Translations under genes and position numbers: made by a program
DNA from: Elusimicrobiota bacterium
GTDB lineage: Bacteria > Elusimicrobiota > Elusimicrobia > UBA1565 > UBA9628
Reading direction: 5' to 3'
Assembly (NCBI GenBank): GCA_041662295.1
Contig: JBAZSR010000002.1
Coordinates: forward strand, 2,130-66,129
Length of the DNA stretch: 64,000 nucleotides
Shown here: one piece after another, positions 2,715 through 23,405 of the stretch
How positions within the stretch are numbered: position 1 is the stretch's first letter
Layout: each line of letters begins with the position of its first letter
Notes under the pieces: generated by a model
Seen by the model: only the letters and a program-made list of their open reading frames with translations
Database searches by the model: none
Told to the model about the DNA's origin: nothing

Positions 2715-2732
2715 ATGGTATCATACCTCGCC

Positions 2733-5668: not shown

Positions 5669-6889
5669 TCAGCGCCGCTTGCGGTAGAGACGGGCCATCC
5701 GGGCCCGGCCCCAGTTGAGGTCCTTGAAGGTCTTGGGCCGCGGCGGGGTCAGCTGGGGCGCCACGGTGTACTTGAAGTCCGGCAGCATGGCCCGCGGGAA
5801 CGTGATGCCGATGTAGCGCTCGATCGCGGTGAGGTACGGCTGCTCGTCCGGCGCCATCAGGGTGATGGCGTCGCCCGCGCCGTAGGCCCGGGCCGTGCGG
5901 CCCACGCGGTGGATGTAGTCCTCCGGGTGCTGGGGCAGGTCGTAGTTGATGACGTGGCTGATCTCCTTGACGTCGATGCCGCGCGCGGCGATGTCCGTGG
6001 CCACGAGGATGCGCGTGCGGCCGGAGCGGAAGCTGTCCATGGCCTGGTTGCGCTGGCCCTGGGTGCGGTCCGCGTGGATGACGCCCACGGAGAAGCCCTC
6101 GGTCTTCAGGCGCCCCGAGAGGCGGTCGGCCCCGTGCTTGGTCCGGGAGAACACCAGCCCCGAGCGGATCTGCGTGGACTCCAGCAGCGCGATGAGGAGC
6201 TGGGTCTTCTGCGTCTGCATCACCGGGTAGACGACCTGGCTGATGCCCTCGGCCACGGAAGTCGGGCGGGAGACCTCGACGCGCACCGGGTCGCGCAGGG
6301 CGAAGGCCGCGATCCGCTCGATCTCGGGGCCGAGCGTGGCGGAGAACATGAGGGTCTGCCGCCGGCTGGGCAGGCGGCCGATGATGTCGCGGATGTCGGG
6401 CAGGAAGCCCATGTCGAGCATGCGGTCCGCCTCGTCGAGGATCAGCAGTTCCAGCCGGTCGAGGCTCACGCTCTTCTGCCACAGGTGGTCGAGGAGGCGC
6501 CCCGGGGTCGCGATCACGACCTGCGCGCCCTCGTGGAACGACTTGCGCTGGTCCCCGTAGCCCACGCCGCCGATGACCACGGAGGTCTGGAAGCGGACGA
6601 ACTGCCCCAGGGACCGGAACTCCTTGTCCACCTGGAGCGCGAGCTCGCGCGTGGGGACGATCGCCAGGATGTGCACCCCGTGCAGGCTGCGCCCGAGGAT
6701 GCGCTGGAGCGCGGGCAGGGCGAAGGCCGCGGTCTTGCCGCTGCCGGTCTGGGCGCAGCCCATGATGTCCTTGCCCTGGAGGGCGATCGGGATGGTCTCG
6801 GTCTGGATCGGCGTGGGAGCCGTGAAATCCATGGCGTTGACCCCGCGCACGAGGTCGTTGTGCAGGCCCAGCTGAGTGAACGGCATCAT
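5669..6889 (-). CDS. DEAD-box ATP-dependent RNA helicase
   Basis: Q-motif (TPIQ), Walker A (AQTGSGKT), DEAD box (LDEAD), SAT and HRVGRTAR motifs. 406 aa. Confidence 0.9.
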   Translation of the reverse strand: MMPFTQLGLHNDLVRGVNAMDFTAPTPIQTETIPIALQGKDIMGCAQTGSGKTAAFALPALQRILGRSLHGVHILAIVPTRELALQVDKEFRSLGQFVRFQTSVVIGGVGYGDQRKSFHEGAQVVIATPGRLLDHLWQKSVSLDRLELLILDEADRMLDMGFLPDIRDIIGRLPSRRQTLMFSATLGPEIERIAAFALRDPVRVEVSRPTSVAEGISQVVYPVMQTQKTQLLIALLESTQIRSGLVFSRTKHGADRLSGRLKTEGFSVGVIHADRTQGQRNQAMDSFRSGRTRILVATDIAARGIDVKEISHVINYDLPQHPEDYIHRVGRTARAYGAGDAITLMAPDEQPYLTAIERYIGITFPRAMLPDFKYTVAPQLTPPRPKTFKDLNWGRARMARLYRKRR

Positions 6890-10968: not shown

Positions 10969-11508
10969 TCATGGGGTCGGCTCCTTGTCCCCTTGGGGCG
11001 CCTGCTCCGGCCGCTCCAGCCGCGCCGGGTCATAGCCCAGCCTCGCGACCTCAGCCATGACCCCCGCGTCCACGGAGGGATCCAGCGCAGGCGTCCGGGA
11101 GAGCACCCACAGATACTTGCGCTCCGGGTGGCCGACCATTGCCCAACGGTATTCCGGGTCCAGCGCGACGATCCAGTACGGCGCTGAGAACGGCCGGAAG
11201 AAGCTCACCTTGAGCCGCGAGTTCGACGGATCCACGCTCCACGCCCGGGCCCGGGCGGAGCGGACAGGCCCTTTCGGGCCGTCTTTGCGGCAGGTGTTGA
11301 CCACCGCCACGGTCCGATCCTCCTGCAGGGCATAGTCCGCGGTCACGCCGTGACAGCCTTTCTCGAAGCTGTTGGGGTACCGCGCGATCTCGTACCATCG
11401 GCCCATGTATCGGTCCAGCTCCACGCTGGGCATGGGCTGGGAATCGAACGGCGCGTGGCCGCAACCGCCCATCAGCAGGAATGCCGCCAGCGCCGCTGCT
11501 CTCTTCAT
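10969..11508 (-). CDS. blc: Outer-membrane lipocalin Blc
   Basis: Lipobox LMGGC and the bacterial lipocalin signature GRWYEIARYPNSFEKGC. 179 aa. Confidence 0.85.
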   Translation of the reverse strand: MKRAAALAAFLLMGGCGHAPFDSQPMPSVELDRYMGRWYEIARYPNSFEKGCHGVTADYALQEDRTVAVVNTCRKDGPKGPVRSARARAWSVDPSNSRLKVSFFRPFSAPYWIVALDPEYRWAMVGHPERKYLWVLSRTPALDPSVDAGVMAEVARLGYDPARLERPEQAPQGDKEPTP

Positions 11509-11546
11509 ACGCTGTATTATACGGAAAAGATCAGGCCACTGTTGGA

Positions 11547-11567
11547 AACTGGCTGAAGACCGAACTC
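11547..11567. repeat. Partial copy (R0) of the tRNA-3'-end-like island repeat (aactggctgaagaccgaactc)
   Basis: Matches the 3' part of repeats R1-R4. Lies within a roughly 290-bp segment homologous to 16361-16445, upstream of ORF6N copy 2. Confidence 0.4.
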
Positions 11568-11836
11568 CCAGCGATTCGACTGATTCAAGGGAACTTTTTC
11601 AAGCCTCGCTCGTATATATAAAGTATGGGCACTTCATCCCTTGAGCCGGATTGCATCGAACAGCGCATCTATCGGATCCGCGGACATCGGGTCATGCTGG
11701 ATTGCGACCTTGCCAGAATCTACGGGATATCGACCAAGCGACTTAATCAGCAGGCGTGCAGGAATCCGGAGCGTTTTCCTGATGATTTCATGTTCCGCGT
11801 GACTAAGGAAGAGGCCTCATCTCTAAGGTTGCATTT

Positions 11837-12939
11837 TGGGGATGCGTTGAATTAATCTGTTGAATGTCTCCCATTGCAGACCAGGTTTGGTCGCAGTCGG
11901 ATAAGCGCTGTGGCCCAACGAAGAAGTGACTTCGGGTTGTTGGCGGAACGGCTGCGACGGAACAGATCGCGGATGACTCCGCCCATAGATTCCATGACGT
12001 TCGTGGTGGCCGGCAGTCCAAGGTCTGGATGGGCACGATAAGCCCGGTAGTACTCAAGGCAGGCTAGGAAATCGCGCACGACCGCCTGCATCCTTCTTGT
12101 CCCACAATCACCCAGGGCTCGCTGTTGCAGGTCGGCAAGGGCACTGTTGAACTCAGCGCCTTTAGGCAGCTCCAACGCTTTCCGAACGAGTCGGTAGATT
12201 TGTTCTCTTACCTCCCCACCTTTGAGCGCCCGATATTGGCCGCGGCGGTGAAACTGAAGCTTGTGAATTAGATGGAATTGGCAAAGCTGCAGCACCCAGC
12301 GCTGCCGCTTCGCAATCTTCTGCATTCCATTCAGGTTGTCGACGACAAGGCCGCATATGCAAGCACGGGCGTTCTTTGGTATGGCAGCGAAAGCCAGTTC
12401 CCATCGCGAGGCGCCTTCTCTGCCTGCGACAAGCAACGGATCCAGGAATAGGGCGCTTGCCCCCGCGCATGGCTTCAGCGCCGTCAGGTACAGGACCCAG
12501 GGCTTTCCTGAAAATTGAAAACGCATGCCATCCGCAAGCAGGACGAGCGGGCCGTGAGGTATTCTGCGGTTGTAGGGCAGGCTGAGGAAGCGGACCAATG
12601 TCCTGCGGAATCTGTAACGCAGGGTCGGGGCAGACAGCATCCCCCGTTGCTGTGCTAGCTGGCGAAGCGTATAACGGCGTAGGAGGGCTCTTTCCAAGAT
12701 GGCAAGGCGCGTTCGGTGCTTGGGCCGTCCTCGCTTTCTCGGCCGGATTGACCAGGTCTTCTTGCAGCTAGAGCACTGCCGCCGACGCCTTCCAAAACGG
12801 CGAACCCTGGAGCCGCAGCATGGCGATTTCGCATGTCTGGCAATCATACATGCGAATTATCCTGAACTTCGAACGGCCTTCCGTCGACAATAACGCCAAT
12901 CTCGGAGGATTCTTCAACAGAATTTCTTTACGCATCCCC
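11837..12939. mobile_element. Insertion sequence (about 1.1 kb) with 27-bp imperfect terminal inverted repeats and a 5-bp ATTTT target-site duplication
   Basis: Left end GGGGATGCGTTGAATTAATCTGTTGAA; right end (reverse complement) GGGGATGCGTAAAGAAATTCTGTTGAA. Flanks gcATTTT|IS|ATTTTgc. The insertion site is the centre of a palindrome that is intact in the paralog (taagattgcaaaatgcaatctta). Confidence 0.75.
11852..12847 (-). CDS. IS transposase with N-terminal zinc-ribbon (family unresolved)
   Basis: 331 aa. N-terminal CCGSRVRRFGRRRRQCSSCKKTW and a C-terminal TTNVMES motif, which is DDE-transposase-like. Lies wholly inside the IS. Confidence 0.65.
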   Translation of the reverse strand: MIARHAKSPCCGSRVRRFGRRRRQCSSCKKTWSIRPRKRGRPKHRTRLAILERALLRRYTLRQLAQQRGMLSAPTLRYRFRRTLVRFLSLPYNRRIPHGPLVLLADGMRFQFSGKPWVLYLTALKPCAGASALFLDPLLVAGREGASRWELAFAAIPKNARACICGLVVDNLNGMQKIAKRQRWVLQLCQFHLIHKLQFHRRGQYRALKGGEVREQIYRLVRKALELPKGAEFNSALADLQQRALGDCGTRRMQAVVRDFLACLEYYRAYRAHPDLGLPATTNVMESMGGVIRDLFRRSRSANNPKSLLRWATALIRLRPNLVCNGRHSTD

Positions 12940-13297
12940 ATTTTGCAACCTTAGAGATGAGTCGTGGCCAGCACCGAAAATACCTGCCCTACGCCTTCAC
13001 CGAACACGGCGCTGTCATGCTCTCAGCCGTTCTCAGAACCCCTATCGCAGTCTCGGCCAGCATCCAGATCGTCCGCGCCTTCAACAGACTGCGGAAGATG
13101 GCCGCGGCCCACAAGGACCTGGCCCTCGCCCTCTCGGAACTTGCCAAGAAAGTCGCCGGGCATGATGACCAGTTCAAGATCGTCTTTGACGCTCTCCAGC
13201 GGCTCGAGGAACCGCCGGCCAAGCCGCGCAAGCAGATAGGATTCGTGCCGCCTAAATGAAAAAGCCGCCCCGAAGGACGGCTTCTCGTCGAAAGCTT

Positions 13298-13330
13298 GGG
13301 GAGTACAGGACGATATTAGAACCTGGCTGA
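13298..13330. repeat. Island repeat R1 (GGGGAGTACAGGACGATATTAGAACCTGGCTGA), a tRNA-Val 3'-end-like putative att scar
   Basis: A 33-bp core recurs at 14823, 15337 and 16346. It aligns with the minus-strand 3' end of tRNA-Val (TGGGCAGTATAGGATTTGAACCTATGAC) apart from a 5-nt insertion. Confidence 0.6.
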
Positions 13331-13380
13331 GGCGCGACGGTCCGACTTGGCCCCTAATCCCGCACATGATATGATGGCCC

Positions 13381-14778
13381 ATGCCCTTTCCTTTCTTGCT
13401 CACGGCCTTGTTGGCGCTCGCCGCGGCCCGTGTCCAGGCGGAATTGCCGCTTCCGGATTCCTTCACCATGACCTATCAAGTGACTGGTTCCGGCCGATTC
13501 AGCGGCGGGAAGTCCGATGCCATCGATTTCGGGCTCGGCGGCCGGGGGACAGGACGATATCGTCAATATTTGAAGCTCAACGGCATAAAAGGCTCTCCCC
13601 TCTCGGTCGATGTGGACCGCCTGCATGGCCAACTCCGGCTCGGCAGTGATTTCGGGCCCTTCTGGCTCTACGATCTCGGCAGGGGCTCCGTTGACAGCCT
13701 TGCCCCGCAGCTCGACCCGAACCGATTCACCAGGCCCGTTCGCCCCCCATTCCCGCTGCGGCCCGAGCACGCCTACCTGTTGCGGCATCGGACCCACCGC
13801 TATCTCGTGATCTTCCGCATCGACCCGGGATCTGCGGGAGACAGCCCGGAACGGCCAGGCCCGCCAGTCCCTCCCAGTCCCCTCACCCCGTCCATGCCAT
13901 CGGCACGGTCTTCCACAGAGATGTCAGCCGGACCGACACCGCCCGGGCCGGCCCCGGCACAGAAGGATTTCATCGCCATCCCCACGCCCAGCCCCATCGC
14001 CACAGTCGGCTCCACCGTCCTGGTCGAGGCCTTCGCCGTCGGGACGGATTCCGCGGCCTTCGTCTACATCCCCCTGCTCGGGGAACAGCACGCCGCCGAC
14101 ACGGTCATCCTTCTCGGCCCGGACGGAACCGTGGCGACGCTGCGGGGCTCACCGAGCTCCACCGCCACGGTTGTCGAAGGACTCCCCTTCCCCGAAGACC
14201 GATTCGAGGCCGAGCAGCCGCCCTTCGCGCGGCTCGAGGTCCCGGCATCCGTCCAAGGAGCCGCGCATTGGGGCTTCCGCGGCAGTGCCGCGCTCGCGGG
14301 GAACGGTCTCGGGCCGGACGCCCTGACATGGGATACGGGCACGAAGAATGGGAACGGCGGCCTCCCCCCCTGCGCAGAACGCCCCCAGGGACTCTTCCCC
14401 GGCGATTCGACGTTCTCGGCGTCGACGACCACGCTCTCCTCCATCAACGCCACGGTGGCATTCACTCGCTTCTCCTCCTTCACCGCCGACAGCTGTTTCG
14501 AAGAAACACGGGTCATCCTTTTCAACAGGGAGACGAAGGCCTGCGGCGTCCTCTTCAAAGACTCGCAGACGGAGTGCTGCGATCTGGCCTGGGACTCGGG
14601 GCTTACCGGACTGCTCAAGATCCAGAAAGATGAGCGCGAGCCGGAATATGTCCTGCTGCTGTCACAGGACTACGGCTGCAGAACCGGAGGCGAACGCCAC
14701 GCCGCGATCTTCCTCAACAGCCGCCTGAAGCATGTCCCGGGAAAGGACGCGTTCTCGGCGGAGGTCACCGGAGAGTAG
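13381..14778 (+). CDS. Secreted hypothetical protein with a Pro-rich linker
   Basis: Signal peptide MPFPFLLTALLALAAARVQA. 465 aa. No recognisable family. Confidence 0.45.
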   Translation: MPFPFLLTALLALAAARVQAELPLPDSFTMTYQVTGSGRFSGGKSDAIDFGLGGRGTGRYRQYLKLNGIKGSPLSVDVDRLHGQLRLGSDFGPFWLYDLGRGSVDSLAPQLDPNRFTRPVRPPFPLRPEHAYLLRHRTHRYLVIFRIDPGSAGDSPERPGPPVPPSPLTPSMPSARSSTEMSAGPTPPGPAPAQKDFIAIPTPSPIATVGSTVLVEAFAVGTDSAAFVYIPLLGEQHAADTVILLGPDGTVATLRGSPSSTATVVEGLPFPEDRFEAEQPPFARLEVPASVQGAAHWGFRGSAALAGNGLGPDALTWDTGTKNGNGGLPPCAERPQGLFPGDSTFSASTTTLSSINATVAFTRFSSFTADSCFEETRVILFNRETKACGVLFKDSQTECCDLAWDSGLTGLLKIQKDEREPEYVLLLSQDYGCRTGGERHAAIFLNSRLKHVPGKDAFSAEVTGE

Positions 14779-14822
14779 CGGGAACCACGCGCGCCGATTC
14801 CCGACGGGATGAAAGGGATGGT

Positions 14823-14855
14823 GGGGAGTACAGGACGATATTAGAACCCGACTGA
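14823..14855. repeat. Island repeat R2 (more diverged copy)
   Basis: GGGGAGTACAGGACGATATTAGAACCCGACTGA. Confidence 0.55.
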
Positions 14856-14884
14856 TGGACGAAAGCCTTGTCCTATTGCGGAAA

Positions 14885-15151
14885 TCATGGGTTCATGAGC
14901 CTCCTGAGGGCGGCCGCCAAATACCGCCGCAGGACCTCTTCGGAGTGTTTCTGAGGGATGAGCCCGGCCAAGTGAGCCCGGCTGGTCAAGGCCGCCCGGA
15001 CTGACTCGGCGAGCCCCTCCCGCGTCCACACGGTCCCCGAGCGGCCGAGCAGTGCGGCGAGCGCCCGATCCACGTCCTTTTCCGGGTCCATGGAGAATTG
15101 GACGGGATAGACCAGGGCCCGCACAGCCGCCTTCCAGTCTGATGCCTTCAT
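14885..15151 (-). CDS. Hypothetical protein (88 aa)
   Basis: The only sizeable ORF between R2 and R3. No recognisable motifs. Confidence 0.25.
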   Translation of the reverse strand: MKASDWKAAVRALVYPVQFSMDPEKDVDRALAALLGRSGTVWTREGLAESVRAALTSRAHLAGLIPQKHSEEVLRRYLAAALRRLMNP

Positions 15152-15336
15152 CGGTTCGGCCTATTCTACGAATATAGGGACCTACGGTGAACCAGGCCCG
15201 GTCGCTCCAACTGGCGAAACTCGAACGCCTCGTCTCCACGCACGACGATCACATCCAGGCCCTGTTCTCAGATTCCACCCTGAGCCAACAAAGCCACCCG
15301 ATTGGGCGGCTTTGCCTCGTCGGCCGTCGAAAGCTT

Positions 15337-15369
15337 GGGGAGTACAGGACGATATTAGAACCTGGCTGA
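15337..15369. repeat. Island repeat R3
   Basis: Identical to R1 over about 47 bp (cgtcgaaagcttggggagtacaggacgatattagaacctggctgagg). Confidence 0.6.
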
Positions 15370-15533
15370 GGGTCGAATCTGCCGTAATATGAGCCTTTCC
15401 GACAGGTCAACCGCAACAAAAACAGGTTCCCGAGGATTTCGCCTTCCGACTGACCAAAGGTGAGATGGAGAATTGGATATGGAGAAGAAACCTTTCTGCG
15501 GCGCGGGTGTTCCACCCATGATAGAATACCCCC

Positions 15534-16286
15534 ATGAACTTCTTTTTCCGATTCATGCTCGTTTCCCTTGCCGCCGCAAGCGCGAGCGCAGGGGTTTCCG
15601 CCGCGGAAACAGACGACAGGTGCGTGGAGTCATGGCAGGTCATCGCTGCCGATCCTTGCGACAAAGCGACCTGCTTCAGCAAGGATTGGCTGAAAGCTCC
15701 TTGCGACAAACGTCTTGAGTGGCGGTGCGTGGACAACCAGGCCGTGTGCGCGGTCCCGGCGGTGGTCCAGCCCAGAGCCGACACGCCGAAAGTCTGGCAG
15801 CCCATCCGCGAGAGACAACTCGCCTACAAGTCCAGCGTGCCGCAGGACTTGCTGAAGGAGGCGCAACGCAAGTTCCCCAGGTTCCGGCTCTACCTTCCTG
15901 TTGAAGCCTTTGAAGGACGCGTGGTGACCGCCGACTTCAACTGCGACAAGAAGCCGGATTATGTGTTGTCGGGTTTCGCCGACCCCAACGAAATCACGAA
16001 GGCGCTTGAATCCGCCGCGCCCGATCCGGTCACGCTGGAGAAAGCCCTAATCAAATTCGAAGCGTATGGCTACAGCCATGACGGGTTCATCGCGCTTACG
16101 GCGGTCAGCACAAAGAAAGGCCGCCGCTGGAGCCTGTTCAAAGGGGACTGCGTGCTGCCGCTCAAGCCGGATGACCCGAAGGACTGTACGGGACTGGCGG
16201 TCAGCTACTGCGGCCAAGACGCCAAGTACTTCTGGTGGGCAAAGGCGTCCGGGACATGGCAGGAACAGTTCGACATGGAGCACTGA
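15534..16286 (+). CDS. Secreted Cys-rich hypothetical protein
   Basis: Signal peptide MNFFFRFMLVSLAAASASAGVSAA. 250 aa with many Cys residues. The region is lower in GC than the surrounding core. Confidence 0.45.
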   Translation: MNFFFRFMLVSLAAASASAGVSAAETDDRCVESWQVIAADPCDKATCFSKDWLKAPCDKRLEWRCVDNQAVCAVPAVVQPRADTPKVWQPIRERQLAYKSSVPQDLLKEAQRKFPRFRLYLPVEAFEGRVVTADFNCDKKPDYVLSGFADPNEITKALESAAPDPVTLEKALIKFEAYGYSHDGFIALTAVSTKKGRRWSLFKGDCVLPLKPDDPKDCTGLAVSYCGQDAKYFWWAKASGTWQEQFDMEH

Positions 16287-16345
16287 GAAAGCGCTGCCCC
16301 CGTTTCGCGGGGGCAGATTCTCCGACGCGGAATGATGAAAGCGGT

Positions 16346-16378
16346 GGGGAGTACAGGATAATATTAGAACCTGGCTGA
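16346..16378. repeat. Island repeat R4
   Basis: GGGGAGTACAGGATAATATTAGAACCTGGCTGA. Confidence 0.6.
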
Positions 16379-16444
16379 AGGCCGAGCTCTCAGCAATTTG
16401 ATCGATTTCAGGGAACTTTTCCGGCCCTCGCTCGTATATAGGTT

Positions 16445-16969
16445 ATGGGCACTTCCCTTGAGCCGCAGAACATCGAAAGCCGCATCCACCTCATCCGCGG
16501 GCATCGGGTCATGCTGGACCGCGACCTGGCGAAAACCTACAGTGTCTCGACCATCCGTCTCAATCAGCAGGTACGCAGGAATCTGGAACGCTTCCCTGAG
16601 GACTTCATGTTCCAACTGACGAAGGAAGCGGCCGTCGCTCTAAGATTGCAAAATGCAATCTTAAAGGCTGGTCGTGGCCGGCACCGAAAATACCTGCCCT
16701 ACGCCTTCACCGAACACGGCGCGGTCATGCTCTCAGCCGTCCTGAGGACCCCCGTCGCTGTCACGGCCAGCATCCAGATCGTTCGCGCCTTCAACAGGAT
16801 GCGAAAGATGGCCGCAGCCCACAAGGACCTAGCCCTCGCCCTCTCAGAACTTGCCAACAAAGTCGCCGGGCATGACGATCAGTTCAAGATCGTCTTTGAC
16901 GCTCTCCAGCGGCTCGAGGAACCGCCTGCCACGCCGCGCAAGCAGATAGGCTTTGTACCGCCGGGTTGA
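16445..16969 (+). CDS. ORF6N-domain DNA-binding protein (intact paralog)
   Basis: [46 protein letters not shown], 174 aa. TATATA lies 6 nt upstream of the ATG. Confidence 0.75.
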   Translation: [174 protein letters not shown]

Positions 16970-17046
16970 AGCCGCACTGATGCGGTGCCAAGCTGCCACC
17001 GCAGCTAAATGAAAAAGCCGCCCCTCAAGGCGGCTTCGGGAAAACT

Positions 17047-17118
17047 TGGGCAGTATAGGATTTGAACCTATGACCCCTGTCGTGTGAGGACAGTGCTCTA
17101 CCGCTGAGCTAACTGCCC
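17047..17118 (-). tRNA. tRNA-Val (anticodon CAC), copy a
   Basis: The reverse complement folds as a cloverleaf: GGGCAGT-TA-GCTC-AGCGGTA-GAGC-A-CTGTC-CTCACAC-GACAG-GGGTC-ATAGG-TTCAAAT-CCTAT-ACTGCCC-A. Confidence 0.9.
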
Positions 17119-17227
17119 GGCTGCTCCGTCTGAGAGCCTCCTAGGACAAGAACCAATTCTTGTCGAGTATAGTGCTCTCGTAAAGGCCGTGCTTTGACCT
17201 GTTCTTCACGAATTGTAGCAGATTGCC

Positions 17228-17953
17228 CTAGGGACTCTTCTTTTTCCCCTTGTCGCTTGGCAAAGAGCCGACTACGGTGTCCAACTCCGAGATATCCAGA
17301 TGCCCAGACTCCAGGTGCTTCCATAAATATTCTACTTCGGCGGGAGAGGGGGCTTCTCTTCCCGCCCTTTTGAATGAATCCTTGATGGCAGCAACCCCAA
17401 CTGCTTTTGAAGTCGCACCTTTGTCTTTTATGATTTTCCGCTTAATATCTTCATCAAGCCCCCGCAAGGCCCAATTCTCATTCAAGAAAGTCACTATTAT
17501 TGCGTGTTTGGCCCACCGGGTTCCCAATCGTGACATGCGTTTCCCTAAGTCGTGGTCGCCGGATTCGGCAATGTAGTCGCATAAGGCCGCAAGGGAAAGG
17601 AGCAGGGATTGTGAAGGGACGCCACTGTAGGGGTACTTCTTGAGGGCACCGACAGCCTCCTTGGAACTGGAGAAAGAAAGGGGAATCGCTTCCGGTCTAA
17701 ATGACACATAATCAAGCTGTATCTCCAATTCTTCAAGAAAGTGTTGAATTTGCGACGGTGACAATAGCCCTTCGGGAAAACCTGTTGACGCCTGACTTCG
17801 AAACGATTCTATCCGAGCATAGTGTGCGGTGGTGACTGTCGAGCTATATAAGGATTCAACTACTCCCATTTCGGCACAAGCGAGACCTGGACCAACAAGG
17901 GTAACGAAAACTATCGCAAAGAGTCTCTCGCCGAGAAACCGCTGCATAAACAC
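17228..17953 (-). CDS. Secreted hypothetical protein (island cargo)
   Basis: 241 aa. N-terminal hydrophobic signal. Low GC. Confidence 0.4.
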   Translation of the reverse strand: MFMQRFLGERLFAIVFVTLVGPGLACAEMGVVESLYSSTVTTAHYARIESFRSQASTGFPEGLLSPSQIQHFLEELEIQLDYVSFRPEAIPLSFSSSKEAVGALKKYPYSGVPSQSLLLSLAALCDYIAESGDHDLGKRMSRLGTRWAKHAIIVTFLNENWALRGLDEDIKRKIIKDKGATSKAVGVAAIKDSFKRAGREAPSPAEVEYLWKHLESGHLDISELDTVVGSLPSDKGKKKSP

Positions 17954-18047
17954 CTCTCTATCCTTGCCAATAAATCATCCCATACAACCAGGGCTCGGAC
18001 CCAATGATATCACAGAACTCGCATCTCCTGAGCTTTTCCTTGTTGCA

Positions 18048-18551
18048 TCAGGGCAGGACTCTCTCTGTCGAGTCCGTAACGCCCTCGAAAGGCGTTTCTG
18101 CTTTGTCGGCAAGTTCCTTCAAAATACGCAACGCCTCCGCATCAAGGTCCGCATCTGTCCAATCCCTGTAGACCTCGCCCGCTACCCCTTCAATGCTGAT
18201 ATCAGAACATTGTCGAGGTTTGCCATAACCCCGCTCAATGATATATGTGGCTGCCGTTAGTCGCTCCTGAAGCGACGGAGCAATCAGGTTCCCGCGCCTA
18301 TCTGGGACCTTCTCTGAGCCCTCTGCAACCCGCTCCAAGAAGGCAAAGCCGAATTTGTCTGCCCATTCCGCACACCGCCGAATGTACCCGCTCCCCTTGG
18401 GCCGACCCGGCCCTCCGGGGTTACCCTTCTCAAATGGTCTACCTGGCATAAGTGCCTCCGCGACATTCCTGCGATAAATAACGCCCCACCACACAAAAGG
18501 AAAAATCGCTCCCATGCCCCTTGGGCAAGAAAGACAGCCTGTTCTCGGCAC
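18048..18551 (-). CDS. Hypothetical phage-like protein with GNPGGPGRPKG motif (DUF5681 / terminase-small-subunit-like N-terminus)
   Basis: MPGRPFEKGNPGGPGRPKGSG. The start may be this internal Met. Confidence 0.35.
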   Translation of the reverse strand: MPRTGCLSCPRGMGAIFPFVWWGVIYRRNVAEALMPGRPFEKGNPGGPGRPKGSGYIRRCAEWADKFGFAFLERVAEGSEKVPDRRGNLIAPSLQERLTAATYIIERGYGKPRQCSDISIEGVAGEVYRDWTDADLDAEALRILKELADKAETPFEGVTDSTERVLP

Positions 18552-18641
18552 TGTTCTGTTCCGAATGCTCTTGTTCAGAACCCGGTGGGGGCATGCGTGT
18601 TATTACTCCCTTTGACCTAGCCTTAACATCACCTTGACATC

Positions 18642-19736
18642 TCATTGATATAGCCTTGATGTTGCATTCTGCCTCAGCCTGTCATAAATTGCGCCCCAAT
18701 GCATCATGCTTTCGTTGGCCTTCGCCCACCATGCGGCCGTCATCTTAGTCCTAGGCCGATAGTGAAGTCGGGCAATGCCAATCAAAACCACCTCCGTCAT
18801 ATGTCTGAGCACTGGGAGCAGAATGGGCTCACAATCGAGTTCTTCCCTAGCCCAGTCGAGCTGCCCCGGCGTAACCATTCTGACGGCGGCCTCCTGGGCC
18901 TTGGTTCCCAACTTGTTTTCAATGTCCTCTCCCTGGCCGCAACCGACTGAATGGATTATTTCTGCTTCCGGCTTGTCTGACTCGTACAGGTGGGGAATCC
19001 ACTTCAATATCCCAAGGTCCCGCAACTGACCCAACCGTCTAAAAGCATCTGTTGCTTTCGACTCTCCCCCCGCCTTCTCCTCCTCAGTCAAGGTTGCTCG
19101 ATAATGAGGTTCTAGCGAACCACTACACGACACCCATTCCCGAGGATTTCCAAACCCCCAGACAACATAAGGCCCCTGCTGCCCAACCCGAACCCGCTCG
19201 AATACCTCCCAAGCCAGACTCCGTCTGATTCCGCCGGAATCGGGGAGAAATTGCTCATGGTAGAGGTCAACAAATAGTCGGAGGGTCATTACATCCTGAC
19301 ACTGCCGGACCCGTTCCAATGGGGAATCCTCGCCGTTGGCCCCCACCACAAGGGAATTCGGGAGAAAGACCAACCCGGCCTCTGGAGTCGGTTTGCTTCG
19401 CAAACTATAGAGGGGGCGAGTCCCTTCCTTGTCCTTTGTGATTAGCCTGGCCTTTATGAGCTTGCCTATGGCATCCTTGGCTCGCATCCGGCTGATTCGC
19501 GTGTATGTCTCAATGGCATGAGTGCTTGCCCTTGTAACATCGTTCAGCCTCCCACTGAAACTCGCCATCACCATATAGGCCACGGCAGGGTTGAGACCTA
19601 GGGTGCAGACGCGTTCCCAATGCTTGCCGTCTATGGCAAAGAAATGCCCCACCCCGCAGCTAGACTCTGGGGCCCCACACGGAGCCAACGCAGGCACGGC
19701 ACCCACTATTCCCCTCGCATATTCTCCCGGGGTCAT
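18642..19736 (-). CDS. Hypothetical protein with putative winged-helix segment (replication/regulatory candidate)
   Basis: 364 aa. The segment RASTHAIETYTRISRMRAKDAIGKLIKARLITK looks like a winged helix. Its start overlaps the upstream gene's stop by 4 bp, consistent with an operon. Confidence 0.4.
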   Translation of the reverse strand: MTPGEYARGIVGAVPALAPCGAPESSCGVGHFFAIDGKHWERVCTLGLNPAVAYMVMASFSGRLNDVTRASTHAIETYTRISRMRAKDAIGKLIKARLITKDKEGTRPLYSLRSKPTPEAGLVFLPNSLVVGANGEDSPLERVRQCQDVMTLRLFVDLYHEQFLPDSGGIRRSLAWEVFERVRVGQQGPYVVWGFGNPREWVSCSGSLEPHYRATLTEEEKAGGESKATDAFRRLGQLRDLGILKWIPHLYESDKPEAEIIHSVGCGQGEDIENKLGTKAQEAAVRMVTPGQLDWAREELDCEPILLPVLRHMTEVVLIGIARLHYRPRTKMTAAWWAKANESMMHWGAIYDRLRQNATSRLYQ

Positions 19737-20071
19737 GGCTGCACCCCCTCAAATAGGCCAGGCTGAGCCGACTCAGCCTTATGCCACAACCTCAGAGGCA
19801 AGGCTATTTGCGGCTCGTATCCCGCATAGTGAATGGGCCTGCCCTCTTGTCTAATTCGCCCCAAACTCGCAGAATAGGAAATGCCCGAATCCTTATCGGT
19901 CAGCAGGACTTCGATTACGCCTTGTTTCTGTGCCGCATCTAGTTGAGGAACGCTGAGTGCCCAGGAAGGTTCTGGATATCTCAACTGGTTCTTACTTCGG
20001 ACTGATTTGACCAGCCGCGCCCCGACGATACGTCCAGGAATCTTTTTCGGGTTGAAGGGGGTAGCACTCAT
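19733..20071 (-). CDS. Hypothetical protein (112 aa)
   Basis: 4-bp overlaps at both ends, consistent with an operon. Confidence 0.35.
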   Translation of the reverse strand: MSATPFNPKKIPGRIVGARLVKSVRSKNQLRYPEPSWALSVPQLDAAQKQGVIEVLLTDKDSGISYSASLGRIRQEGRPIHYAGYEPQIALPLRLWHKAESAQPGLFEGVQP

Positions 20072-20289
20072 ACTTTCCCTCCCTTCGATTCTGCCAATAC
20101 CTGATACACCCGGCGTGGCGTGATTCCGAGCAGGCTAGAGAGTTGATTGGCCGTCTTCCCTGCGGCGTGAAGGCGAAGGAGTTTTGCTTTGTCAATTCTG
20201 TCCCGCTTCGGAACATAGATTATTCGCCCTCCAGCCCTAGCCCTCAGCCTCGCCAAACACCTTTTGCATACGCAATCCATCAATGCCAT
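20068..20289 (-). CDS. Small HTH DNA-binding regulator (Mor-like)
   Basis: 73 aa. YVPKRDRIDKAKLLRLHAAGKTANQLSSLLGITPRRVYQVL. First gene of the minus-strand operon. Confidence 0.5.
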   Translation of the reverse strand: MALMDCVCKRCLARLRARAGGRIIYVPKRDRIDKAKLLRLHAAGKTANQLSSLLGITPRRVYQVLAESKGGKV

Positions 20290-20858
20290 ATATAACCTCC
20301 CAGGAAATAAAAATGGCCCGTCAATAGTTAGAACAACTCGTCGGAGCCTAGGTATACCTAGACCCTAACGGCTTTTCTTTCCTATCGACAAGCCTGGGTG
20401 GTTATCCGATGGACCGTCCGTATTGGGTTATCGGACTGAATTGTGCGGCCCCTTTCGGGGTTGTCCCACATCCAGCCCGGCCCACGGACTTCTTCGGGCC
20501 AACAGCACTTGCTTCATGTTCCTACACCATCCGCACATTGGGCCCTTGCGGGTTATCCTAGGGCGAAGCATGAACACGATGCCCCAATAACGGAGGGGCC
20601 TCCCGTTTGTGTCATCAACTCAAAGAACAGGGGAAACCTTCAATCAATTATACCAGTTCAACTTGCCTTACCACTGAAAAACCGCCGGGAAATCCTTTGA
20701 CCAGTTCTTCACCCCATGCAACAAACTATGCCAGCCGGAACCTCTCCCTCCCCTTTAGCTAAGCCCCTATGCAGTCCAACGACGAGCCTTACCGATGTCC
20801 CTAAAAAGCACCGTCAATTGCTTGACCCCTTTGAGGAACAAGTAATAGACTCATCCTG

Positions 20859-21248
20859 ATGACCAAATTAAATGCTACGCGTGGATTTCTTTTGGCTCTA
20901 GCCCTGGCACCCCTCGGCGGGTGCGCCACAACACCCAAGAGTAGCCCAGGCAATCTTACCCACGGCGGGGTCCAACTCTTTCTCAAGAAAGGCGTAACCA
21001 CGCAAGCAGAGGTCCTTGAGAAATTTGGTGCCCCAAACATCGCTACGGTTGATGGTGCGGGGCATGAAGTCTGGACCTACCAAAAGCACGCCTCTGTTTC
21101 CCATGAGTCTTCTGGGTATGCGACGATTGTCCTGTTTGGAGGGTCTTCCAGCGGTTTTGAACAATCGTCCCGCACGATGACATTGATTATTAAATTTAAC
21201 GACACAAAGGTCGTTTCAGATTTCAGCAGCATGTACTCTAGCTTCTAG
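20859..21248 (+). CDS. Lipoprotein (unknown function)
   Basis: Lipobox LGGC. 129 aa. AT-richer than the surroundings. Confidence 0.5.
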   Translation: MTKLNATRGFLLALALAPLGGCATTPKSSPGNLTHGGVQLFLKKGVTTQAEVLEKFGAPNIATVDGAGHEVWTYQKHASVSHESSGYATIVLFGGSSSGFEQSSRTMTLIIKFNDTKVVSDFSSMYSSF

Positions 21249-21256
21249 GAGCATTT

Positions 21257-21709
21257 ATGAAAAAATTCATTGCAGTACTCCTACTTGCAATTTTGTCTGG
21301 CTGTGCATCGGCTCCAAAATTGACCTCGCTTGAGTTGCAGGCGATTCAGAAACGACAATATGATTCATCGAAACAGATTGTTTTCGCATCCGCAATGTCG
21401 GTCTTTCAGGACCTGGGCTACACCATCAAGAGCGCGGATATACAAACTGGACTGATTCAAGCTCAGAGCCCGACGGAAAGCACCGTATTTTTCGGGTCCT
21501 ACATGAGCAATGTTGAGGCAACCGCTTTTGTTGAAGAACTATCACCCGCCAAATCAAGCATCCGCTTAAACTTTGTTCAGGTAAATGAATCCTCCTCTGG
21601 ATATGGAATGAAGTCCAAGTCGGACACCCCCATCGTGGACTCCAAGGTTTACCAAAACGCTTTCACAAAGATTCAAGAAGCGATTTTCATTCGCACGAAT
21701 ACTCAGTAA
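21257..21709 (+). CDS. Lipoprotein (unknown function)
   Basis: Lipobox LSGC. 150 aa. AT-rich codon usage. Confidence 0.55.
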   Translation: MKKFIAVLLLAILSGCASAPKLTSLELQAIQKRQYDSSKQIVFASAMSVFQDLGYTIKSADIQTGLIQAQSPTESTVFFGSYMSNVEATAFVEELSPAKSSIRLNFVQVNESSSGYGMKSKSDTPIVDSKVYQNAFTKIQEAIFIRTNTQ

Positions 21710-21741
21710 CCCCTCCCCCCTGACTAGCCTTCCCTAAAAAG

Positions 21742-22719
21742 CTAATCCAACCTGACTCGCTTCCTCTCGCCAGGGAGAGGCCCCATCTTATCCAATGGGC
21801 TAGCTCGACGGTGTTCTGTCAAAGCATCATCGTCGGTCATGTTGACATAGTTCCTCACCATGTCGAGGGAGGAATGCCCCAAGAGCTTTTGCAAGGCCAT
21901 GATGTCCCCCCCATTCCTGAGGAATTGGAGAGCAAAGAAGTGCCTCAACGCATGGGGAGAGAGCCTATCAGCGGCAATCCCTACCGTCCTGGTGTAGCGT
22001 TTCATCCTGTGGGCGAAGTGTGTCCGTTTCAGCGTCCTTCCAAAACGGTCAATCCATAGGCTATCGCATCCCTCGACGGTGCCCCTCTTTCGCATCCAGA
22101 GCATGAGGGCATGACGGGCAGTGCTCCCGAAGGCAATCCGGCGCTCCTTCCCTCCTTTCCCCATAACCGCGATGGTGTTGCTTCCCCAATCAATCTCGGA
22201 GAGCTTCACGGAAAGGGCCTCGCTGATTCTCAGCCCTGTATCGGCCAGAAACAGTATTAGGGAATGGTCCCGAAGGCCGAGAGCTTTGCCTGTGTCAATC
22301 ACTTCGAGGATACGCCTCAATTCCTCGACGGTGATAGGCTTTAGGAATCTCCGCTCCCGCCTGGGATGTTCTACCTTTTCCATCGGGTCGAGGATTATCA
22401 GCCCGTCCCGGTGTAGGAAGTGCCAGAAGGTTCTGAGTATCTTGAAGATACAGGCTACCGTCGTGGGTTTGTTGCCTCTCTCCTTACAGTGGTCGAGGAA
22501 GGCCCTCAGGTGTGGGGATTGAATCTCACCGGGCGAAAGGTTGCCATTCTCTGCTACCCAAGCCCGGAACAATCTCAACCGGACAGCATAGAGGTCGATA
22601 GTCGGCTGAGAAAGATTGAGGCTCTTGCACCGCAAGAGAAACATCCTCGCGGCAGTGTCCCAATTGAGGGTTTGCGGGGTAATGCTTGCGATATTCAACC
22701 TGTCCATGTGCTCCTCCAA
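21742..22719 (-). CDS. Tyrosine-type site-specific integrase/recombinase
   Basis: N-terminal core-binding (SAM-like) domain. The catalytic R...HALRH...LLGHSSLDMVRNY motifs with the Tyr nucleophile. 325 aa. Confidence 0.85.
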   Translation of the reverse strand: MEEHMDRLNIASITPQTLNWDTAARMFLLRCKSLNLSQPTIDLYAVRLRLFRAWVAENGNLSPGEIQSPHLRAFLDHCKERGNKPTTVACIFKILRTFWHFLHRDGLIILDPMEKVEHPRRERRFLKPITVEELRRILEVIDTGKALGLRDHSLILFLADTGLRISEALSVKLSEIDWGSNTIAVMGKGGKERRIAFGSTARHALMLWMRKRGTVEGCDSLWIDRFGRTLKRTHFAHRMKRYTRTVGIAADRLSPHALRHFFALQFLRNGGDIMALQKLLGHSSLDMVRNYVNMTDDDALTEHRRASPLDKMGPLPGERKRVRLD

Positions 22720-22823
22720 AACAGGTCGAGTATAGTGCTGTCATGGGCCCCAAAAGGCCCAGAAAAAGCACCTTCCAGACTTTACGCTAGGTGGGTTCTC
22801 CGACGGAGAGGACAGCGAGGAAT

Positions 22824-22895
22824 GGGCAGTATAGGATTTGAACCTATGACCCCTGTCGTGTGAGGACAGTGCTCTACCGCTGAGCTAACTGCCCG
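22824..22895 (-). tRNA. tRNA-Val (anticodon CAC), copy b
   Basis: Identical to copy a over the whole gene plus the GGC 5' flank. Confidence 0.9.
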
Positions 22896-22949
22896 GCAGA
22901 GGATATTCTACAACACTTTTCCGCTGGCCCCCAACCCGCACTAGGAAAG

Positions 22950-23405
22950 TCATGCCGGACCGGAGGAACAGCGCCGGTAGAGGCCGTTCTTGCGGACCAT
23001 CAGCTTGTTGATGATGAATTCGCGGCGCAGGGTGCAGACGTCCTCGTGGAACCGGCGGAGGGTGTCGTTGACCTCGGCTTCGGTGTAGACCCTCCCTTGA
23101 AGGAAATTCGAGGCCAGCCGCTCGAGGACGAGGAGGCGCTTGCCCCGCTTGGCCGGGATGCTGACGAGCCTCCCGTCCGCGCTGAAAAAACTCTGGAGTA
23201 CGCGGTCCTGATCGCTGAGCCGGTTCGAATGCCGCTCAAGCCACTCGCGCACCGAGGCCTCCTCGACCCGCCAGTCCTTGCCGAGCTTGTACGCCTTGAT
23301 CTCCCCGCTTTGGAGCTTGCGCAGCACGACCTGAGTGTTCATCCGGAGGATCTCGGCCACTTCCGCGGCTGTCAGCAGCTTGAGGTCTCTGATCTCGCTC
23401 TTCAT
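22950..23405 (-). CDS. DNA-binding protein: excisionase/MerR-type HTH plus DUF2087-like C-terminal domain
   Basis: The N-terminus LLTAAEVAEILRMNTQVVLRKLQSGEIKAYKLGKDWRV matches excisionase/MerR-type HTHs. 151 aa. Confidence 0.5.
   Translation of the reverse strand: MKSEIRDLKLLTAAEVAEILRMNTQVVLRKLQSGEIKAYKLGKDWRVEEASVREWLERHSNRLSDQDRVLQSFFSADGRLVSIPAKRGKRLLVLERLASNFLQGRVYTEAEVNDTLRRFHEDVCTLRREFIINKLMVRKNGLYRRCSSGPA

Follow-up and report, generated by a model that had tools for sequence, protein, structure and literature searches.

Candidate att-type junctions: tRNA-Val-like repeats beside an integration hotspot in an Elusimicrobiota bacterium

Beside a tRNA-Val gene in a 64,000-nucleotide stretch of an Elusimicrobiota genome (contig JBAZSR010000002.1; hereafter, the window), a 41-bp repeat separates a row of small gene modules. 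We rate at about even the chance that these repeats are att-type junctions of integrase-less mini-islands accreted in tandem at tRNA-Val. The repeat reads like part of a tRNA, one copy is positionally equivalent to a tRNA end, identity between copies stops at sharp borders, and the array adjoins an active-looking island for which a relative retains the empty site; that a site-specific recombinase made the copies is what we infer. The locus reproduces in miniature a known pattern, in which islands line up in tandem beside a tRNA gene, and is no novel type of system.

The repeat unit and its likeness to a tRNA end

A first-pass annotation of this DNA had placed a 33-bp core at 13298, 14823, 15337 and 16346, and a pattern search of the window returned exactly these four plus-strand matches, each with no mismatches, where 0.00 were expected in shuffled sequence. 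The conserved unit that encloses the core is longer than had been noted, at 41 bp (TGGGGAGTACAGGAYRATATTAGAACCYGRCTGANGNNCGA), and the four copies, rep1 to rep4 (Table 1), are identical to one another at 35–39 of 41 positions (85–95%). A partial fifth copy had been reported at 11547; a fifth copy does exist, but it is a full-length, degenerate one (rep5), with 24–28 of 41 positions identical to the others. The chromosomal blc gene starts 15 bp away from rep5, and ORF6N-1 follows 62 bp downstream of it; the copy belongs to an 87-nt block with 78% identity to the rep4-containing sequence in front of ORF6N-2.

Table 1. Features of the repeat array and the adjoining island (window positions).
Feature	Position	Strand	Remarks
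rep5	11523..11563	-	oldest, degenerate copy; outer border of low-GC region
ORF6N-1	11625..13259	+	KilA-N-like DNA-binding protein gene; split by IS
IS in ORF6N-1	11838-12939		5-bp target duplication ATTTT; inverted repeat
IS transposase	11852-12847	-	331 aa; weak IS256-family match
Terminator hairpin between ORF6N-1 and rep1	13261..13283	-	homologous to tRNA-Val A terminator
rep1	13297..13337	-	flank type I, AAGCTTTCGACG on minus strand
Gene A (islet A cargo)	13381..14778	+	465-aa predicted secreted ORFan, MFA6315862.1
rep2	14822..14862	-	flank type II; minus strand reads ...ACTCCCC-A-CCA-TC
Gene B (islet B cargo)	14885..15151	-	88-aa hypothetical protein; promoter-like site 15191-15163
rep3	15336..15376	-	flank type I
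ORF6N fragment	15400..15458	+	frameshifted, internal (aa about 41-62); directly after rep3
Gene C (islet C cargo)	15534..16286	+	250-aa predicted secreted ORFan
rep4	16345..16385	-	flank type II, ...ACTCCCC-A-CCG; 60 bp upstream of ORF6N-2
ORF6N-2	16445..16969	+	intact; convergent with tRNA-Val A; Pfam PF10543, E 3.6e-31
tRNA-Val A terminator	17014..17037	-	intrinsic; T-run on minus strand
tRNA-Val(cac) A	17047..17118	-	inner end of islet array; distal (attR-type) end of island 1
Island 1	17119..22822	-	5.7-kb integrative element, GC 0.53; flanked by two tRNA-Val copies, 75 nt identical
Xer-like tyrosine recombinase of island 1	21742-22719	-	
tRNA-Val(cac) B	22823..22894	-	adjoins integrase

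All five copies share the orientation of tRNA-Val, and all fall inside the 5.6 kb 3' of that gene; a profile search found no further 41-bp unit in the remaining 58 kb of the window, and searches of 185,579 species genomes, JGI metagenome contigs and IMG/VR, the source genome not being among them, returned no true matches. The unit has no palindrome, dyad symmetry or terminal inverted repeats, and it folds no better than shuffled sequence (z -1.2 to +1.5). These results speak against a REP- or MITE-type short sequence scattered through the whole genome and clustered here by chance, which we regard as very improbable. A short-read assembly of the same organism (L092) does break at rep3, as assemblies do at repeated sequences, but the local copies suffice to explain that break.

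Identity between copies is lost within a few bases of the unit, and the 30-nt flanks agree mostly at chance level (5–12 of 30). The exceptions are the 30 nt right of rep4 and rep5 and the 12 nt left of rep1 and rep3, with which rep3 matches rep1 at 50 of 52 positions (96%). The similarity to tRNA-Val noted earlier for the 12 nt upstream holds for rep1 and rep3, where a common ORF6N-terminator module accounts for it.

Read on the minus strand, the unit runs through a T-stem, T-loop, 5-nt insertion, T-stem and acceptor strand like the 3' end of tRNA-Val. The alignment of AGGTTCtAAT[ATCGT]CCTgTACTcCCCA with AGGTTCAAAT CCTATACTGCCCA has 20 of 23 identical positions plus the 5-nt insertion, so the earlier alignment was right and its gap is real. 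The likeness exceeds that of shuffled sequence: a local score as high as the observed 21 arises in 0.02% of shuffled cores (P 2e-4) and in 0.14% of random 34-mers from the window (P 1.4e-3). The 3' end of an unrelated tRNA-Pro scores 23 against the core, above tRNA-Val, so the similarity of the core is not specific to tRNA-Val; the core taken alone, which ranks about 6th–8th of 2526 window tiles, shows no more than a modest likeness to tRNA-Val, and typical exact att repeats match their tRNA better than this unit does. Searched between 11400 and 17200 at E <= 10, the Rfam tRNA model RF00005 matched tRNA-Val A alone, and ARAGORN called no tRNA at the repeats. The type II flanks, A-CCA or A-CCG, resemble the CCA-encoding tRNA-Val genes of two relatives (L096, L097), and the minus strand of rep2 looks like a tRNA end with an encoded CCA. 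The pseudo-T-loop has 12 nt, and the acceptor-like strand ACTCCCC meets the tRNA-Val 5' strand GGGCAGT with a C.C mismatch and does not pair; therefore the repeat can neither regenerate a working tRNA nor replace the tRNA end, and so it is not the present-day partner of tRNA-Val.

Position of the array at a tRNA-Val integration hotspot

In both relatives, as at ORF6N-2 in the window, an ORF6N gene, a terminator and tRNA-Val are contiguous. The ORF6N-1–terminator–rep1 segment aligns base for base with this arrangement: the terminator before rep1 is 88% identical over 33 nt to the one after tRNA-Val A, the flank TTCGACGA-AAGCCG is common to L096, and the blastn alignment of L096 to the window continues from ORF6N across the terminator and 13 nt into rep1. 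By this alignment, rep1 is shown to occupy what corresponds to the site of the tRNA-Val 3' end in the relatives, with the same flank. The other homologous segment of L096 ends inside rep4, at window position 16373, beyond which L096 has other genes and no empty junction. We count this break in synteny as apparent support for a junction, and no relative has a clean empty site or a changed cassette order at any repeat.

Island 1, on the other side of tRNA-Val A, does have an empty site. The island is absent from L096, whose single tRNA-Val has a 5' flank matching that of tRNA-Val B; L096 positions 3100–3208 correspond to window positions 22823–22931 at 94.5% identity, and 2464–3175 to 16373–17122. 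This demonstrates that the tRNA-Val locus is an integration hotspot for tyrosine-recombinase islands in the lineage.

The first-pass annotation read the array as serial integration at one tRNA followed by progressive decay of the older att sites. Its first half is borne out insofar as the repeats are like the tRNA-Val 3' end, co-oriented, found only on the 3' side, and delimit low-GC modules that end at the hotspot, but the islets have no integrase and relatives have no clean empty site for them. Its second half is not supported: there is no gradient of decay, and rep1 to rep4 differ from tRNA-Val by one and the same 5-nt insertion and by common substitutions. These shared derived changes, together with the high mutual identity, mark the four as copies of one already modified site, not as tRNA ends that decayed each on its own. 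The repeats are also better conserved than the ORF6N paralogues beside them (77–91% identical), which points to recent spread or maintenance and not to neutral decay.

If the repeats are junctions, an element or duplicated module would have carried a copied tRNA-Val 3' end together with the flank and terminator downstream of it, and this copy would have gained three substitutions and, next to the T-loop, the 5-nt insertion. In its altered form the site may then have served as the recombination partner for later insertions, repeat by repeat and not repeat by tRNA, each event leaving a near-identical copy between unrelated cargo while tRNA-Val was kept intact. The present modules would be CIME-like remnants without recombinase genes, mobilised, if at all, only in trans, for instance by an integrase of the island 1 family.

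Gene modules between the repeats

The repeats bound five modules: ORF6N-1 with its IS, gene A, gene B, the ORF6N fragment with gene C, and ORF6N-2. The islets measure 0.5–1.7 kb with one gene each, far below the usual size of an island. They had been described as lower in GC, and they are (0.57–0.66 against 0.68–0.70 in the chromosome), though islet A, at 0.656, only slightly. Gene A has no Pfam or NCBIfam match and only a self match among 5.8 billion proteins; gene C likewise has no family match and its protein search returned itself only, and the two proteins are unrelated (E = 2.1). ORF6N is present in three or four copies or fragments. By tblastn with ORF6N-2, the two halves of ORF6N-1 correspond to aa 1–69 (11625–11834, 69%) and aa 71–173 (12945–13253, 90%), and the fragment after rep3 appears as two adjacent HSPs, RQVNRNKNRFP and KQVPEDFAFRLTK. 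None of the ORFs between 11564 and 17046 has a recombinase domain, and the islets hold no integrase, excisionase or remnant of either.

The main rival to junctions, distinctly less probable in our judgement, makes the repeats passive scars of duplication. An ORF6N–terminator–tRNA-Val segment would have been duplicated by ordinary recombination, the spare tRNA would have decayed to a 3' stub, and further segmental duplications would have multiplied the stub, the copies being held alike by gene conversion, with no site-specific recombinase and no function. The ORF6N copies and the lack of recombinase genes in the islets fit such a history, as does the ancestral state of the ORF6N–terminator–tRNA-Val arrangement in this lineage. 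In unrelated phyla, moreover, ORF6N paralogues often stand in tandem with their intergenic DNA duplicated too and no tRNA nearby, and the divergence of rep1 from the tRNA end (about 13% plus the indel) is similar to that of the terminator (12%) and of the C-terminal part of ORF6N (9%). Duplication should leave homology that fades gradually, however, whereas here a few bases suffice for identity to drop from about 90% to chance level; the copies are set apart by unrelated ORFan genes; 41 bp is about as short a tract as RecA-dependent conversion can use; and rep1 to rep4 are more alike than the genes supposedly copied along with them. Borders this sharp are to be expected of site-specific junctions.

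It is unlikely that the repeat is instead a cis-regulatory or protein-binding site, such as an ORF6N operator, upstream of co-regulated genes and only secondarily tRNA-like. The earlier observation that four of the five copies lie upstream of a plus-strand gene is correct (50–165 bp), three copies are followed by ORF6N or its fragment, and the repeats are more conserved than the genes beside them. A 116-nt direct repeat with GGTTCTATTAC and several GTTCTAATA motifs flanks ORF6N in L012, another genome of the Elusimicrobiota, but its resemblance to our repeat falls short of significance (nhmmer E about 3), and relative to ORF6N it points the opposite way. The repeats stand at unequal distances from the start codons (50, 164, 60 and 62 bp), and every gene has a predicted -10 box (TATGAT, TAGAAT, or GGAAC-N16-CGTA) much closer to its start and outside the repeat; for gene A, a promoter scan predicts TTGGCC-17-TATGAT at 13347–13375. 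Rep2, moreover, is placed between the convergent 3' ends of genes A and B. The repeated promoter once proposed is a weak alternative, and a promoter role of the repeat is unlikely. The repeat also lacks dyad symmetry, and a binding site leaves the positional equivalence to the tRNA end unexplained. A terminator-like hairpin at 15291–15313 precedes rep3.

Against the repeats being junctions we count the missing islet integrases, the want of clean empty sites in relatives, the small size of the islets, the inability to regenerate a tRNA, the modest likeness of the core, the tandem ORF6N duplications far from any tRNA in many phyla, and the absence from the array of the arm-type motif of island 1, GTCGAGTATAGTGCT. 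A bolder version seems improbable. In it the altered end of tRNA-Val, whose pseudo-T-loop has 12 nt, would be the dedicated recombination site of a self-contained Elusimicrobiota cassette system, a functional analogue of an integron attC array that would derive from a tRNA att site and be insulated from the tRNA by the 5-nt insertion. Xer-like tRNA integrases acting in trans would insert, excise and shuffle single genes with their own promoters at the repeats, here the genes of ORF6N regulators and of ORFan secreted proteins.

If the repeats are recombination junctions, a tRNA hotspot would have evolved a secondary site of its own, by now harmless to the tRNA, that could gather single-gene cargo such as ORFan secreted proteins and ORF6N genes in a poorly studied, uncultured phylum. 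If they are duplication scars only, the finding is an ordinary one, and under either reading no long-standing question is opened. For annotators the locus is a concrete case of tRNA-derived repeats that tRNA finders miss.

Comparison with known systems

Of the marks of an att site, a co-oriented direct repeat of the tRNA 3' end on the 3' side is seen in five of five copies, and an integrase inside the element is present in island 1 only, not among the ORFs of the islets. In Dehalococcoides, tandem islands lie downstream of ssrA with repeats of the ssrA 3' end between them; these repeats depart from ssrA at one common position and are each accompanied by a conserved motif foreign to ssrA, insertion takes place in the T-loop, and an integration module is lacking in 15 of the islands (PMC3146451). 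The array described here is similar in lying 3' of one small-RNA gene with co-oriented 3'-end copies between its units, in having repeats that share a difference from the gene and are each adjoined by a conserved non-gene motif, in its junction in the T-loop region, in its many units without an integration module, and in its strain-specific cargo of lower GC. Unlike our short, single-gene units, the Dehalococcoides islands are much larger and multi-gene, many with a six-gene integration module. Their recombinase is a serine enzyme, whereas an Xer-like tyrosine enzyme adjoins our array; the 5-nt insertion, moreover, makes our repeat incompatible with the tRNA.

The att sites of cis-mobilizable elements (CIMEs) are demonstrably recognised by the integrase of a neighbouring element. 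CIMEs and the accretion of integrative elements are known from the streptococcal ICE and IME literature (reviewed in PMC5704250). Like such arrays, ours consists of segments that have att-type boundaries but lack genes for recombination or transfer, and an element with an integrase adjoins them in tandem at the shared target; unlike them, the repeat of island 1 is the full 75-nt tRNA, and its arm-type motif does not recur in the array.

Integron cassette arrays, with their attC sites, and the pdif modules of Acinetobacter carry single-gene modules between short, conserved recombination-type sites. Our array shares with them diverse, ORFan-rich single-gene cargo between short sites and a tyrosine recombinase nearby. 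It differs from integrons in that its genes have their own predicted promoters and its site is tRNA-derived, and from pdif arrays, whose sites alternate, in that all sites are direct. An integron integrase was rejected (TIGR02249, 82.8 bits against a cut-off of 265; PRK15417, 63.9 against 435), as were attC sites, the repeats containing no attC-like imperfect palindrome and folding like their shuffles.

Williams reportedly described in 2002 that integrated elements leave tRNA gene fragments behind. Such fragments are attR remnants of these elements (PMC9897764). Our repeats resemble them as partial tRNA 3' ends that point the same way as the intact tRNA and lie on the distal edge of foreign DNA, but ordinary fragments are near-exact (52 nt exact in L003), whereas ours are diverged, number five, and are closer to each other than to the tRNA. 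Related elements carry ORF6N just inside their ends, at tRNA-Arg in L003 (52-nt repeat) and at tRNA-Gly in L093 (80-nt repeat).

Layout of the array and distribution of the repeat

The source of this locus is an uncultured Elusimicrobiota MAG (window proteins MFA6315861-MFA6315865, locus tags WC943_00425 onwards), whose GC content is 0.68-0.70 in the chromosome and 0.53-0.66 between the blc lipocalin gene and tRNA-Val B, the second of two tRNA-Val(cac) genes. On the plus strand, the order is rep5, the DNA-binding protein gene ORF6N-1 (split by an IS), a terminator, rep1, gene A, rep2, gene B (minus strand), a hairpin, rep3, a frameshifted ORF6N fragment, gene C, a terminator, rep4, the paralogous ORF6N-2, a terminator, tRNA-Val(cac) A, a 5.7-kb island (island 1) and tRNA-Val(cac) B. 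Genes A and C have only self matches among 5.8 billion proteins, and comparison of the two shows that they are unrelated. Because BLASTP gives no alignment, we dropped the interpretation of 15187-15321 as a C-terminal ORF6N remnant; ahead of rep3, likeness to the ORF6N-1 3' region is limited to the hairpin and a 12-nt flank.

Features of the tRNA-Val locus in the window and of related (L096, L097) and other comparison (L003, L012, L067, L089, L093) loci
Feature	Sequence	Position	Remark
Secreted protein gene	window	8272-10899	875 aa
blc lipocalin gene	window	10969-11508	outer border of low-GC stretch
rep5	window	11523-11563	
IS in ORF6N-1	window	11838-12939	1.1 kb
rep1	window	13297-13337	flank type I
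Gene A	window		465-aa secreted ORFan
Core match within gene A CDS	window	13548-13560	220 bp past rep1
rep2	window	14822-14862	flank type II
Gene B	window		88 aa, minus strand
rep3	window	15336-15376	flank type I
ORF6N fragment	window	15400-15470	after rep3
Gene C	window		250-aa secreted ORFan
rep4	window	16345-16385	flank type II
tRNA-Val A	window	17047-17118	minus strand
Island 1	window	17119-22822	
Island-end motif	window	17162, 22725	15 nt
tRNA-Val B	window	22823-22894	minus strand
Excisionase-family HTH gene	window	22950-23405	151 aa
GGGAAC-N16-CGTA(T/A)A element	window	11592-11624, 16412-16444	
	L012	~5965-6000	
	L096	~2503-2536	
	L097	~5950-5985	
ORF6N palindrome	window	16636-16666	ORF6N-2
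	L003	~10195	
	L012	~6195	
	L067	~4935	
	L096	~2727	
ORF6N 5' fragment	L097	5895-5930	
ORF6N 3'-end remnant	L096	~500-530	
Direct repeat	L012	5758-5873, 6679-6794	116 nt
Integrase C-terminal remnants	L089	1620-1690	
	L003	9790-9910, 10530-10600	

The first-pass annotation reported four copies of a 33-bp core, and these are borne out by exact plus-strand matches at 13298, 14823, 15337 and 16346, where chance predicts none. Aligned in register, the copies define a conserved unit of 41 bp, with pairwise identities of 35-39/41 (85-95%) among reps 1-4 and identical (100%) cores in rep1 and rep3. In the 30 nt on both sides, identity drops to what chance would give (5-12/30), except that similarity extends 12 nt leftwards between rep1 and rep3 and 30 nt rightwards between rep4 and rep5; the flank types alternate along the array (I, II, I, II). 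A fifth copy had been described as partial; it exists, but is full length and degenerate (24-28/41), and lies within an 87-nt block that shares 78% identity with the sequence preceding ORF6N-2.

A profile built from the copies detects no others in the 64-kb window, the best non-self matches, among them the tRNA-Val A end, having E ~1. The pattern GTACAGGANNATATTAGAACC has no match in 185,579 species genomes or in IMG/VR viral contigs (source MAG not included). Two matches in JGI metagenome contigs are attributable to chance, lying inside an unrelated low-GC transposase ORF with nothing shared beyond 21 nt. The one further sequence from the same organism is a 1.3-kb Logan contig. That the repeat is a dispersed element of the REP or MITE type is highly improbable: the profile search lends this no support within the window, and the unit contains no palindrome. 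An Rfam search of the repeats finds no structured RNA family, the real tRNA alone matching, and neither strand of the repeat gives a folding signal.

Two minor features lie nearby. Within the gene A CDS is a 12-nt exact core match, ACAGGACGATAT, preceded by GGGGG, which may be coincidental (rough chance estimate, ~0.2 such matches). The 875-aa secreted protein ends in a Sel1-like repeat array, seen in the DNA as 108-nt periodic repeats, and is otherwise ordinary.

Relationship of the repeat to tRNA-Val

Read on the minus strand, the unit is TCG..CC.TCAGCC AGG TTCTAAT ATCGT CCTGT ACTCCCC A, and the tRNA-Val end is ATAGG TTCAAAT CCTAT ACTGCCC A. The previously proposed alignment with a 5-nt insertion holds: MAFFT puts ATCGT after the T-loop and before the 3' strand of the T-stem, with agreement at 20/23 of the remaining positions. 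The likeness also exceeds that of shuffled sequence: 0.02% of shuffled cores, and 0.14% of 34-mers drawn at random from the window, attain its local alignment score of 21. The tRNA-Pro of an unrelated genome, however, scores 23, above tRNA-Val, and the 33-bp core alone ranks ~6th-8th among 2526 window tiles; the tRNA likeness of the repeat sequence is generic. ARAGORN and the Rfam tRNA model (E <= 10) report no tRNA at the repeats.

The positional argument for a tRNA origin is stronger than the sequence likeness. In L096 (SRR12113395) and L097 (JGI 3300045118), the order is ORF6N gene, terminator, then the 3' end of a tRNA-Val(cac) convergent with the gene, an arrangement that recurs at ORF6N-2; at ORF6N-1, the terminator (88% identical) is followed by rep1 in place of the tRNA. 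With blastn, L096 aligns to the window across the ORF6N gene and the terminator and then 13 nt into rep1, and the spacer beside rep1, CTTTCGACGAGAAGCCG, matches that beside the L096 tRNA, CCTTCGACGACAAGCCG. tRNA-Val A is followed by its own intrinsic terminator, a hairpin whose T-run is on the minus strand, and this hairpin also stands after rep1. Type II flanks continue after the acceptor-like strand as A-CCA-TC (rep2) and A-CCG-C (rep4), resembling the tRNA-Val genes of L096 and L097, which encode CCA, unlike those of the window. From these comparisons we conclude that a tRNA-Val 3' end gave rise to the 3' half of the unit and to its flank. The sequence of the 5' half, TCG..CC.TCAGCC, is kept among the repeats and is not tRNA-like. 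A different parental tRNA, if any, would start GGGGAGT, end ACTCCCCA and carry a CAGG/CCTG T-stem.

The idea that older att sites decayed progressively does not fit the divergence among copies, which follows no gradient with distance from the tRNA. The insertion is common to reps 1-4, as are three substitutions relative to the tRNA, and the flanking ORF6N paralogues are less alike than these repeats (77% in the 5' part, 91% in the 3' part). Reps 1-4 are thus copies of one already-modified site, recently spread or homogenised. This site cannot restore a tRNA, because ACTCCCC does not pair fully with the 5' strand GGGCAGT and the loop spans 12 nt; we infer that the recombination partner of a rep, if any, must be another rep and not the tRNA.

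Accretion, duplication and regulation as possible origins of the array

Unrelated cargo is separated by short repeats that have sharp borders and a common orientation, and the array adjoins an integrase island at the same tRNA. Such a layout is typical of integrative elements accreted in tandem and of CIME-like remnants without an integrase; we favour this reading, at about even odds. A close parallel is published for the ssrA array of Dehalococcoides, in which the repeats likewise share a difference from ssrA, with a conserved non-ssrA motif alongside, the insertion maps to the T-loop, and 15 islands lack an integration module (PMC3146451). Tandem islands with att-type repeats at tRNAs are known; the miniature single-gene units, the tRNA-uncoupling insertion and the I, II, I, II alternation of flanks are unusual here.

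The main rival, that passive duplication and gene conversion made the repeats, draws on the tandem duplication of ORF6N genes in many phyla without tRNAs and on a divergence between rep1 and the tRNA close to that seen in the neighbouring terminator and gene. Against it stand the sharp identity borders and the unrelated ORFans carried as cargo, and we consider it fairly unlikely. A regulatory site, such as the promoter suggested in the first-pass annotation, is unlikely: each gene has its own -10 box nearer the start and outside the repeat, distances from repeat to start codon vary, and rep2 lies between two convergent gene ends. The sole sigma-70-like match overlapping a repeat is weak, at rep4 (ATGAAA-16-GATAAT). 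An integron was rejected, the repeats showing no folding signal, and an integron-like cassette system using a tRNA-derived site is improbable.

The integrase island and the ORF6N genes

One stretch of L096 matches window 16373-17122 (ORF6N-2, terminator and tRNA-Val A), and its tRNA with the next 37 nt matches 22823-22931 (tRNA-Val B and 5' flank) at 94.5%; since it matches both outer sides, L096 represents the empty site for island 1. The island carries a Xer-like tyrosine recombinase (21742-22719; Pfam Phage_integrase, E 1.4e-37). The tRNA-Val genes flanking it are complete and identical (75/75), and attP must therefore contain the whole tRNA gene. The motif near both island ends, GTCGAGTATAGTGCT, has similar counterparts in L003 and L089 and may be an arm-type site; it is absent from the repeat array. 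Integrases of the same family lie beside tRNA-Arg in L003 (52-nt exact repeat) and tRNA-Gly in L093 (80-nt repeat), both with an ORF6N gene just inside the element. Integrase C-terminal CDS remnants (...SPLDRL.PLPGERKRVR...) occur on both sides of ORF6N in L089 and L003, as though the integrase gene 3' end of these related elements had taken up an ORF6N module by insertion or exchange. An excisionase-family gene (TIGR01764, E 3.6e-10) lies immediately 5' of tRNA-Val B, on the chromosomal side and outside island 1.

A general ORF6N-tRNA linkage was rejected: among 80 loci from GTDB species genomes, only ~8 lie within 6 kb of a tRNA, and the linkage is limited to close Elusimicrobiota relatives. 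By eye, GGGAAC-N16-CGTA(T/A)A is conserved before the ORF6N genes of this lineage, 5-10 nt from the start codon; it looks like an ECF-sigma promoter, a prediction from sequence, and the resulting transcripts would be nearly leaderless. In L096, a short ORF6N 3'-end remnant (...taggttcgtgccgcccaag...) between pilin-like genes suggests repeated ORF6N gain and decay around the locus. In the Elusimicrobiota MAG L012, a direct repeat (84% identical) flanks ORF6N, with a third, partial copy right after the ORF6N stop codon and a second ORF6N paralogue upstream. It begins CGGTTCTATTACTGTCCTATTC, loosely like the rep minus strand (17/22), and was not used as evidence because the match is not significant (E ~3) and the orientation is opposite.

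ORF6N genes also carry a perfect DNA palindrome in mid-CDS, at codons ~64-75, in the same place across many phyla. It is present in most of 96 unique homologues, with arms of at least 10 nt in 61 and up to 17 nt, and is centred at 36-46% of gene length in 82% of genes; codon-shuffled controls mostly have arms of 5-6 nt (maximum 10 in 480 trials). Of 11 papers found to mention ORF6N, none points to it in title or abstract. The arms differ between homologues yet co-vary to remain perfectly complementary, around a spacer of 1 or 3 nt, which indicates selection at the DNA level, for instance as a dimer binding site or a target for recombination or IS insertion. The IS in ORF6N-1 (termini GGGGATGCG.../...CGCATCCCC; 5-bp target duplication ATTTT) is inserted exactly at the palindrome centre; its 331-aa product has a Zn-ribbon at the N terminus and only weak IS256-family similarity. 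Behind rep3, the ORF6N fragment stops close to the position of the palindrome, and in L097 a 5' fragment ending ...LRSQIVTLK, at the palindrome, directly adjoins the promoter of the next complete ORF6N. Across the palindrome, the amino acid identity of ORF6N-1 to ORF6N-2 rises abruptly from 69% to 90%. The palindrome thus coincides with recombination borders in the window and L097, in the form of IS insertion, truncations and an identity jump.
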